A DNA stretch of 64,000 nucleotides from Escherichia coli. GTDB lineage: Bacteria; Pseudomonadota; Gammaproteobacteria; Enterobacterales; Enterobacteriaceae. Position 1 is the first letter of the stretch; every line of letters starts with the position of its first letter. Location: assembly GCF_030013595.1 (NCBI RefSeq), contig NZ_CP122768.1; one strand, 5' to 3'. Position numbers and translations under genes: made by a program. Below are positions 49,299 through 49,546 of this stretch, one piece after another. Below the pieces are notes generated by a model. The model was not told the origin of the DNA. It did no database searches and was given only the letters and a program-made list of their open reading frames with translations.

Positions 49299-49546
49299 TT
49301 TCCTCTCCAGTTCAGATTACTGCGATATTAATCTTTCGTTTTGTTTCAGTTGATACTGCGCCATGGTGAGATAAAAATAAAACGAAAGATAATAGTTTTC
49401 TGATCTGATTCACAAAAGAAACATAATGAAAGCCACTGAAACGAGAGTAGCTTGCGCCAATGGGTAAGGTGGGCTTGCATTTGCTTAATAGAAAGGCGTT
49501 AATAGGCAAAACGAAATGAAACGAAAGTTTTACGAAAGGACTTACT
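49299..49546. promoter_or_regulatory. Divergent agaR / kbaZ control region with multiple CGAAAG/CTTTCG repeats (candidate AgaR operators)
   Basis: aatctttcgttttgtttc, aaaacgaaagataat, aaacgaaatgaaacgaaagttttacgaaagg; direct and inverted copies of one hexamer family. Confidence 0.55.

Follow-up and report, generated by a model that had tools for sequence, protein, structure and literature searches.

The aga locus and its divergent spacer

The stretch of DNA analysed here (the window) is 64 kb long and comes from the E. coli chromosome. Positions 49299-49546 make up the whole 248-bp intergenic spacer between kbaZ, on the minus strand, and agaR, on the plus strand. kbaZ (48018-49298) is the first gene of the kbaZ-agaVWEFA operon and has a GTG start; it was identified as an open reading frame and is annotated in an identical E. 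coli record. agaR (49547-50356, with its ATG at 49547) encodes a repressor of the DeoR/GlpR family according to Pfam, NCBIfam and the annotation. The predicted protein matches PF08220 (HTH_DeoR) at its N-terminus with 76 bits and PF00455 (DeoRC, the sugar-phosphate sensor) at its C-terminus with 186.8 bits, both above the cutoffs, and it passes the NCBIfam AgaR equivalog model with 465.9 bits against a cutoff of 260. A sequence search of the PDB returned the DeoR sensor domain only, and no DNA complex that would explain how the pentamer repeats described below are read.

A 451-bp query spanning the spacer finds a match in 5318 of 5426 complete E. coli genomes, and in the identical E. coli records the flanking genes are annotated as kbaZ and agaR. 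The gene order is agaI-agaD-agaC-agaB-kbaY-agaS followed by agaA(nagA)-agaF-agaE-agaW-agaV-kbaZ, all on one strand, with agaR on the opposite one. The full aga/gam cluster is present in the window, whereas K-12 has the known agaW'/agaA' deletion. The agaW-agaE-agaF-agaA segment lost in K-12 is intact here, and therefore the operator cluster upstream of agaS lies 5.3 kb from the spacer and not 3.0 kb. The spacer itself shows 5 differences from K-12 MG1655 in 248 bp, none of them within the hexamers discussed below; a window position here is converted to its K-12 counterpart by subtracting it from 3,328,212.

Some features of the surrounding DNA are worth recording. At the rsmI/agaI junction (approximately 37957-39637), the genes that come directly after agaI are rsmI and lpoA, whereas in K-12 the yraHIJK fimbrial genes occupy this place. 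The type II toxin-antitoxin pair prlF-yhaV (50411-51210) comes directly downstream of agaR and is encoded on the other strand. Rfam matches elsewhere in the window include RNase P RNA (rnpB), SraG, STnc490 and naRNA4 (at 57620-57995, 19181-19352, 24691-24814 and 17254-17324), as well as the greA, S15 and rimP leaders and two tRNAs.

An Rfam search of the spacer identified no RNA family. A mechanical ORF of 100 aa (49312-49614, minus strand) runs across it, and was discounted because the conservation takes the form of discrete DNA blocks between unconstrained spacer, with no coding-frame pattern. A terminator-like hairpin found by a scan (49453-49430, minus strand) sits in non-conserved spacer and was rejected. 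Published genomic SELEX, done in vitro, gave a weak peak at the agaR/kbaZ spacer with two minor-sigma RNA polymerase holoenzymes (PMC5493296).

The hexamers and the longer operator motif

The initial annotation described at least six copies of a CGAAAG/CTTTCG hexamer in the spacer, in direct and inverted orientation. Both orientations are indeed seen. The exact word occurs only four times, at 49333 (minus strand) and at 49383, 49522 and 49533 (plus strand), so that the count holds only if one-mismatch variants are admitted, which brings the total to 10. These variants are CAAAAG at 49413, TGAAAG at 49427, CGAGAG at 49442, CGCAAG at 49451 (minus strand), AGAAAG at 49490 and CGAAAT at 49512.

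The counts were compared with 5000 first-order Markov simulations based on the AT-rich composition of the spacer itself (its dinucleotide transitions). The four exact copies compare with an expectation of 0.21, and 0 of the 5000 simulations reached four; the ten loose copies compare with 3.4 ± 1.8, with a probability of about 0.002 for ten or more. When all 248-bp windows of the 64 kb were scanned, at least three exact copies were found in two places only, namely this spacer (four) and the region upstream of agaS (three, at 43975, 43986 and 44013), which supports the expectation that the hexamer would be confined to aga promoters. The loose family reaches 10 per 248 bp at one other place, in windows starting at 61900-61935, inside a coding ORF. 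This loose peak (61900-62180) falls within ORF 61676-62665, which follows tdcA, and has no cluster of exact copies.

The hexamer proves to be the head of a longer element, CTTTCG-TTTYR-TTTY, built of T-rich pentamers in a 5-bp register. A clear example is the minus strand of 49508-49527, which reads CTTTC GTTTC ATTTC GTTTT. A degenerate 14-mer describing the element, TTTCRTTTYRTTTY, has 6 exact matches in the 64-kb window, against 0.01 expected, and all are at aga promoters: 49334 (plus strand) and 49374, 49508 and 49513 (minus strand) in the spacer, and 43987 (plus strand) and 44067 (minus strand) upstream of agaS. A further copy with one mismatch is found at 49418 on the minus strand. The consensus sequences derived for each site separately converge on CTTTCG TTTYR TTTC nTTT. 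An independent search for repeats picked out an inverted repeat of 16 nt, 94% complementary, at 49331-49346 and 49375-49390 (sites a and b below), together with direct repeats linking 49375 with 49514 (sites b and d) and 49419 with 49509 (sites c and d).

The element also accounts for the spacing of the hexamers, which had been described as helical-turn-like. The copies at 49512, 49522 and 49533 are 10 and 11 bp apart, as that description requires, but the underlying period inside the operator is 5 bp, as seen in GAAAT at 49513, GAAAC at 49518 and GAAAG at 49523. Pentamers in a 5-bp register place units 10-11 bp apart on the same face of the helix, and these same-face pentamers are what was noticed. 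The hexamer is the conserved head of the operators, but the true recognition unit is approximately 20 bp long and consists of 5-bp-phased TTTC/TTTY repeats.

Two near-consensus CRP sites are found upstream of tdcA (60056-60071 and 60560-60600). Beside the second of these is an AgaR-type 14-mer with one mismatch, GTTCATTTCATTTT (60582-60595), which is probably there by chance.

Conservation and a map of the predicted sites

A scan with the AgaR protein gave 80 loci with orthologues, at 81-98% identity. The genera sampled are Escherichia, Citrobacter, Klebsiella, Raoultella, Enterobacter, Kluyvera, Yersinia, Serratia, Buttiauxella, Cedecea, Ewingella, Mixta and others, and the sample also includes Salmonella enterica subspecies arizonae and diarizonae. 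In 80/80 orthologous loci agaR and kbaZ diverge, and of the 74 spacers that could be used, 66 measure 248-251 bp. Conservation was expressed as a weighted footprint over 73 distinct spacers, giving identity to the base in the window. The footprint consists of sharp conserved islands between free spacer: mean identity is 0.85-0.93 in four sites, here named a to d, compared to 0.28 at 49434-49470 and 0.49 at 49309-49330.

With up to one mismatch allowed, site a is present in 68, site b in 67, site c in 63 and site d in 71 of the 74 spacers. Their spacing is also retained, at 40 bp between a and b (61 of 65 spacers), 44 bp between b and c (all 59 spacers that have both) and 139-142 bp between b and d (64 of 67). 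In approximately 1.25 Mb of sequence from 80-82 loci, exact 14-mers are found almost only at the homologous aga positions and at the two positions upstream of agaS. By this comparison of sequences, the layout has been preserved almost to the base throughout the Enterobacterales. Two of the hexamers counted in the initial annotation do not share this pattern, namely those at 49442 (CGAGAG, 0.28) and 49533 (0.46), which are not conserved outside Escherichia; of the latter, only the AAGGA part is general, and the GAAAGG form recurs in some genera.

Among the 82 loci, the clearest exact 14-mer away from aga promoters (L037:9060-9073, from a Citrobacter sp.) is about 260 bp downstream of agaR, and may be an extra member of the regulon or a chance occurrence.

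The map of the spacer is described here from kbaZ towards agaR; conservation was the basis for all of the -10, -35 and start-site assignments. The kbaZ Shine-Dalgarno block (49299-49308, minus strand) has a conservation of 0.97. Predicted operator a (49331-49350, TCTTTCGTTTTGTTTCAGTT) reads CTTTCG on the plus strand, so that its orientation is opposite to that of b, c and d; it contains the exact 14-mer at 49334-49347 and is kept in 15 genera. Close to it is a conserved block (49353-49358, 0.93) that on the minus strand reads CAGTAT (the reverse complement of ATACTG), with A2, A5 and T6 invariant on the kbaZ strand. We take this to be the probable kbaZ -10 element, in which case transcription of kbaZ would start near 49345-49346, and operator a would lie over the start and the early leader (approximately -2 to +15).

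Predicted operator b (49372-49390, minus strand, ATCTTTCGTTTTATTTTTA) contains the exact 14-mer at 49374-49387, has a conservation of 0.93, and would overlap the -35 region of kbaZ. It is followed by a predicted cAMP-CRP site at 49399-49414 (TCTGATCTGATTCACA, TCTGA-TCTGAT-TCACA), which has one mismatch to TGTGA-N6-TCACA and a conservation of 0.83 across genera. Its centre at 49406.5 would be at approximately -61.5, a class I position, provided that the kbaZ start suggested by CAGTAT is right. kbaZ is among the CRP targets recovered by genomic SELEX (PMC3105977). A consensus promoter scan of the spacer gave two weak candidates on the plus strand and, at its threshold, no kbaZ promoter on the minus strand, which fits a CRP-dependent promoter with poor hexamers. 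Predicted operator c (49413-49433, minus strand, GCTTTCATTATGTTTCTTTTG) borders directly on the CRP site, upstream of it; it has the one-mismatch 14-mer at 49418-49431 and a conservation of 0.92.

Between the two promoters is the non-conserved spacer at 49434-49470, which holds CGAGAG at 49442 and CGCAAG at 49451; the small differences in length between species all fall within it. The agaR promoter is placed tentatively at TTGCAT (-35, 49475-49480, conservation 0.95) and a -10-like TTAATA (49499-49504, conservation 1.00) on the plus strand. With their 18-bp spacing these would place the start of agaR near 49511, on the border of site d. Within this promoter spacer is an AGAAAGG unit (49489-49496, conservation 0.85) that may be a partial AgaR site. 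Operator d (49507-49530, minus strand, AAACTTTCGTTTCATTTCGTTTTG) has four consecutive pentamers, with exact 14-mers at 49508 and 49513 in 5-bp register. It would cover the agaR start and is probably the site of auto-repression. The fourth exact CGAAAG (49533-49538, plus strand) is 11 bp from the head of d and overlaps AAGGA, the agaR Shine-Dalgarno sequence.

The second cluster of predicted operators (43986-44081) is upstream of agaS (42777-43931, minus strand), and comprises sites e (43986-44004, plus-strand reading), g (44032-44050, minus-strand reading, with a 6-bp register) and f (44062-44081, minus-strand reading). Across 72 loci, conservation extends over the block 43985-44110. Of the hexamers upstream of agaS, only the one at 43986 is in a conserved operator, while those at 43975 and 44013 are not conserved. 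The AgaR consensus WRMMTTTCRTTTYRTTTYNYTTKK, which is not used as evidence here, fits sites d and e perfectly. Two neighbouring features may be added. Operator f is adjoined by a moderately conserved TGTGA half-site (TGTGATCGTTGAAAGA, 44084-44099), possibly a weak site at which CRP acts on the agaS promoter. Further on, the agaA-agaS spacer contains a REP-like, GC-rich palindromic element (44120-44215). Upstream of agaS, strong divergence from K-12 is limited to this stretch, which is also not conserved across genera.

Control by AgaR and the alternatives

According to published work, AgaR is a tetramer (PMC10991401) and binds the agaR, kbaZ and agaS promoters, known as PR, PZ and PS (PMC3668189, PMC4694137). 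Fusions to PZ and PS are induced by GalNAc, and deletion of agaR makes agaA and agaS constitutive (PMC3668189; also PMC4694137). An AgaR sequence taken from PkbaZ and placed at +1 of a synthetic promoter represses it and responds to AgaR dosage (PMC8667592). This published sequence, CTTTCGTTTCATTTCGTTT, is found once in our DNA, at 49509-49527 on the minus strand, and is site d; the table entry (PMC8667592 Table S3) has one extra T compared to the genome.

The sites found here are at the agaR, kbaZ and agaS promoters, have the cognate AgaR encoded adjacent to them, and are conserved together with the regulator; site d agrees with the published sequence, and the other operators share its consensus. 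The initial annotation had proposed an array of AgaR (DeoR-type) sites in the divergent agaR-kbaZ control region; annotation, regulator models, published site and motif confinement all agree with this. We conclude, with a probability of roughly 0.9, that this is the divergent control region of the aga regulon (N-acetylgalactosamine/galactosamine) in E. coli, and that it contains four AgaR operators, of which the hexamers are the best-conserved parts.

The mechanism would be ordinary operator occlusion by a tetrameric repressor of the DeoR/GlpR type at two back-to-back promoters. With operator a on the kbaZ start and operator b on its -35 region, bound AgaR would exclude RNA polymerase. Because operator c abuts the CRP site, AgaR may also hinder activation by CRP. 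Operator d and the partial unit in the promoter spacer would together cover the agaR start and lead to auto-repression, and a sugar-phosphate inducer derived from GalNAc or GalN would release AgaR.

It could be argued that the hexamers are a by-product of AT-rich, purine-tract-rich intergenic DNA and have no specific function. The spacer does have a G+C content of 37% against 51% for the window, the loose family also scores 10 in the coding window near 61900, and two of the ten copies (49442 and 49451) are in non-conserved spacer. However, simulations matched for composition never produced four exact copies, the 14-mer is found six times where 0.01 is expected, and position, orientation and spacing are kept across genera while identity in the adjacent spacer has dropped to 0.28. 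For the conserved copies this rules out an artefact of composition, which as a general explanation has next to no probability. It is also conceivable that the conserved blocks are read mainly by a protein other than AgaR, either a paralogous DeoR-type regulator of tagatose or galactitol genes acting on CTTTC/GAAAG, or a nucleoid protein. In E. coli Nissle, the operators of TagR (CTTTCAAAATGAAAG) have the pentamer too (PMC12226905), so that some cross-recognition can be imagined. Against this, the sites accompany agaR in 80/80 loci and are only at aga promoters; AgaR is reported to bind directly, and agaR deletion to give constitutive expression (PMC3668189); site d tracks AgaR dosage in the synthetic promoter (PMC8667592); and the TagR sites are palindromic, whereas the aga sites are direct pentamer repeats. 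The strict co-occurrence with agaR and the published genetics make this explanation very unlikely.

Two further proposals accept AgaR as the protein that binds, and concern how it acts. One is that repression works through a long-range loop, with AgaR tetramers bridging the agaR-kbaZ array and the agaS array approximately 5.3 kb away. DeoR and GlpR are relatives that use multiple operators, and there are two clusters of one operator type here. A tetramer, as AgaR is reported to be (PMC10991401), would also suit such a bridge. However, no fixed separation of the clusters is kept, and it varies between about 2.3 and 5.3 kb. Most loci resemble the window, at approximately 5.3 kb; L003 has 4.3 kb, K-12 has 3.0 kb, and L055 and L016 fall within 2.3-2.9 kb. 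Each cluster also has enough local sites to bind tetramers alone. Moreover, single-copy PZ-lacZ and PS-lacZ fusions, each apart from the other cluster, are still inducible (PMC3668189), which argues that each cluster works by itself. We therefore regard looping as improbable. The other proposal is that the operators form one nucleoprotein complex of fixed geometry and not independent sites, with tetramers bridging a, b and c, so that the kbaZ promoter is wrapped and CRP is either trapped or kept out. Operators bound cooperatively by an oligomer would be expected to lie in helical phase. The head-to-head distances of 44, 63 and 32 bp between b, c, the partial unit and d, and a further one of 95 bp, are all near whole helical turns, while the 40 bp between a and b is 3.8 turns. 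Sites a and c are 84 bp apart, which is 8 turns and in phase, with site b midway and the CRP site enclosed by b and c. Such a complex might in addition be coupled to site d and to the agaS array, which would make the two divergent promoters switch in concert. On the other hand, the distances of 40 and 44 bp, nearly invariant from Escherichia to Yersinia and Serratia, could follow from the geometry of the promoter and CRP site that the operators overlap, and not from contacts between AgaR molecules. The fixed-geometry complex is a speculative proposal with perhaps a slim chance of being right. We know of no earlier description of such an architecture for AgaR, and, if true, it would refine a system that is already known.

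The AgaR operator array itself is already known, control of the agaR, kbaZ and agaS promoters having been published since 2004; the primary AgaR footprint study, on the aga regulon of E. coli K-12, is reportedly that of Ray and Larson from that year. Arrays bound by GlpR and DeoR have in common with AgaR an HTH_DeoR plus DeoRC architecture, an oligomeric state, and several operators that overlap core promoters beside a CRP site. The half-sites of GlpR and DeoR are palindromic and have other sequences, unlike the AgaR sites, which are direct 5-bp-phased TTTC/TTTY repeats. The closest comparison is the K-12 aga regulon, which has the same locus, genes and hexamers and the same promoters PR, PZ and PS (PMC3668189), and whose published site is operator d. 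Nothing essential differs from the K-12 AgaR operators, the agaS cluster being 5.3 kb away here and 3.0 kb away there. TagR, from the tagatose cluster of E. coli Nissle, is, like AgaR, a DeoR-family repressor divergent from a tagatose-bisphosphate aldolase operon; its cluster likewise has a CRP site upstream of the -35 and operators containing CTTTC/GAAAG, and the authors of that work themselves remark on the resemblance to the aga cluster (PMC12226905). The TagR sites differ in being only two in number, and in being 19-bp near-palindromes of the form CTTTC-N5-GAAAG, which were predicted rather than footprinted (PMC12226905).

AgaR sites are already in use as parts of synthetic promoters, and the analysis has little value as a discovery. 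What is gained is a description: four conserved operators, a CRP site and the likely promoter hexamers mapped to the base, and a recognition unit that is a 5-bp-phased CTTTCG-TTTYR-TTTC repeat and not a lone hexamer. The operator map could help in operator mutagenesis or in the design of GalNAc-inducible expression.
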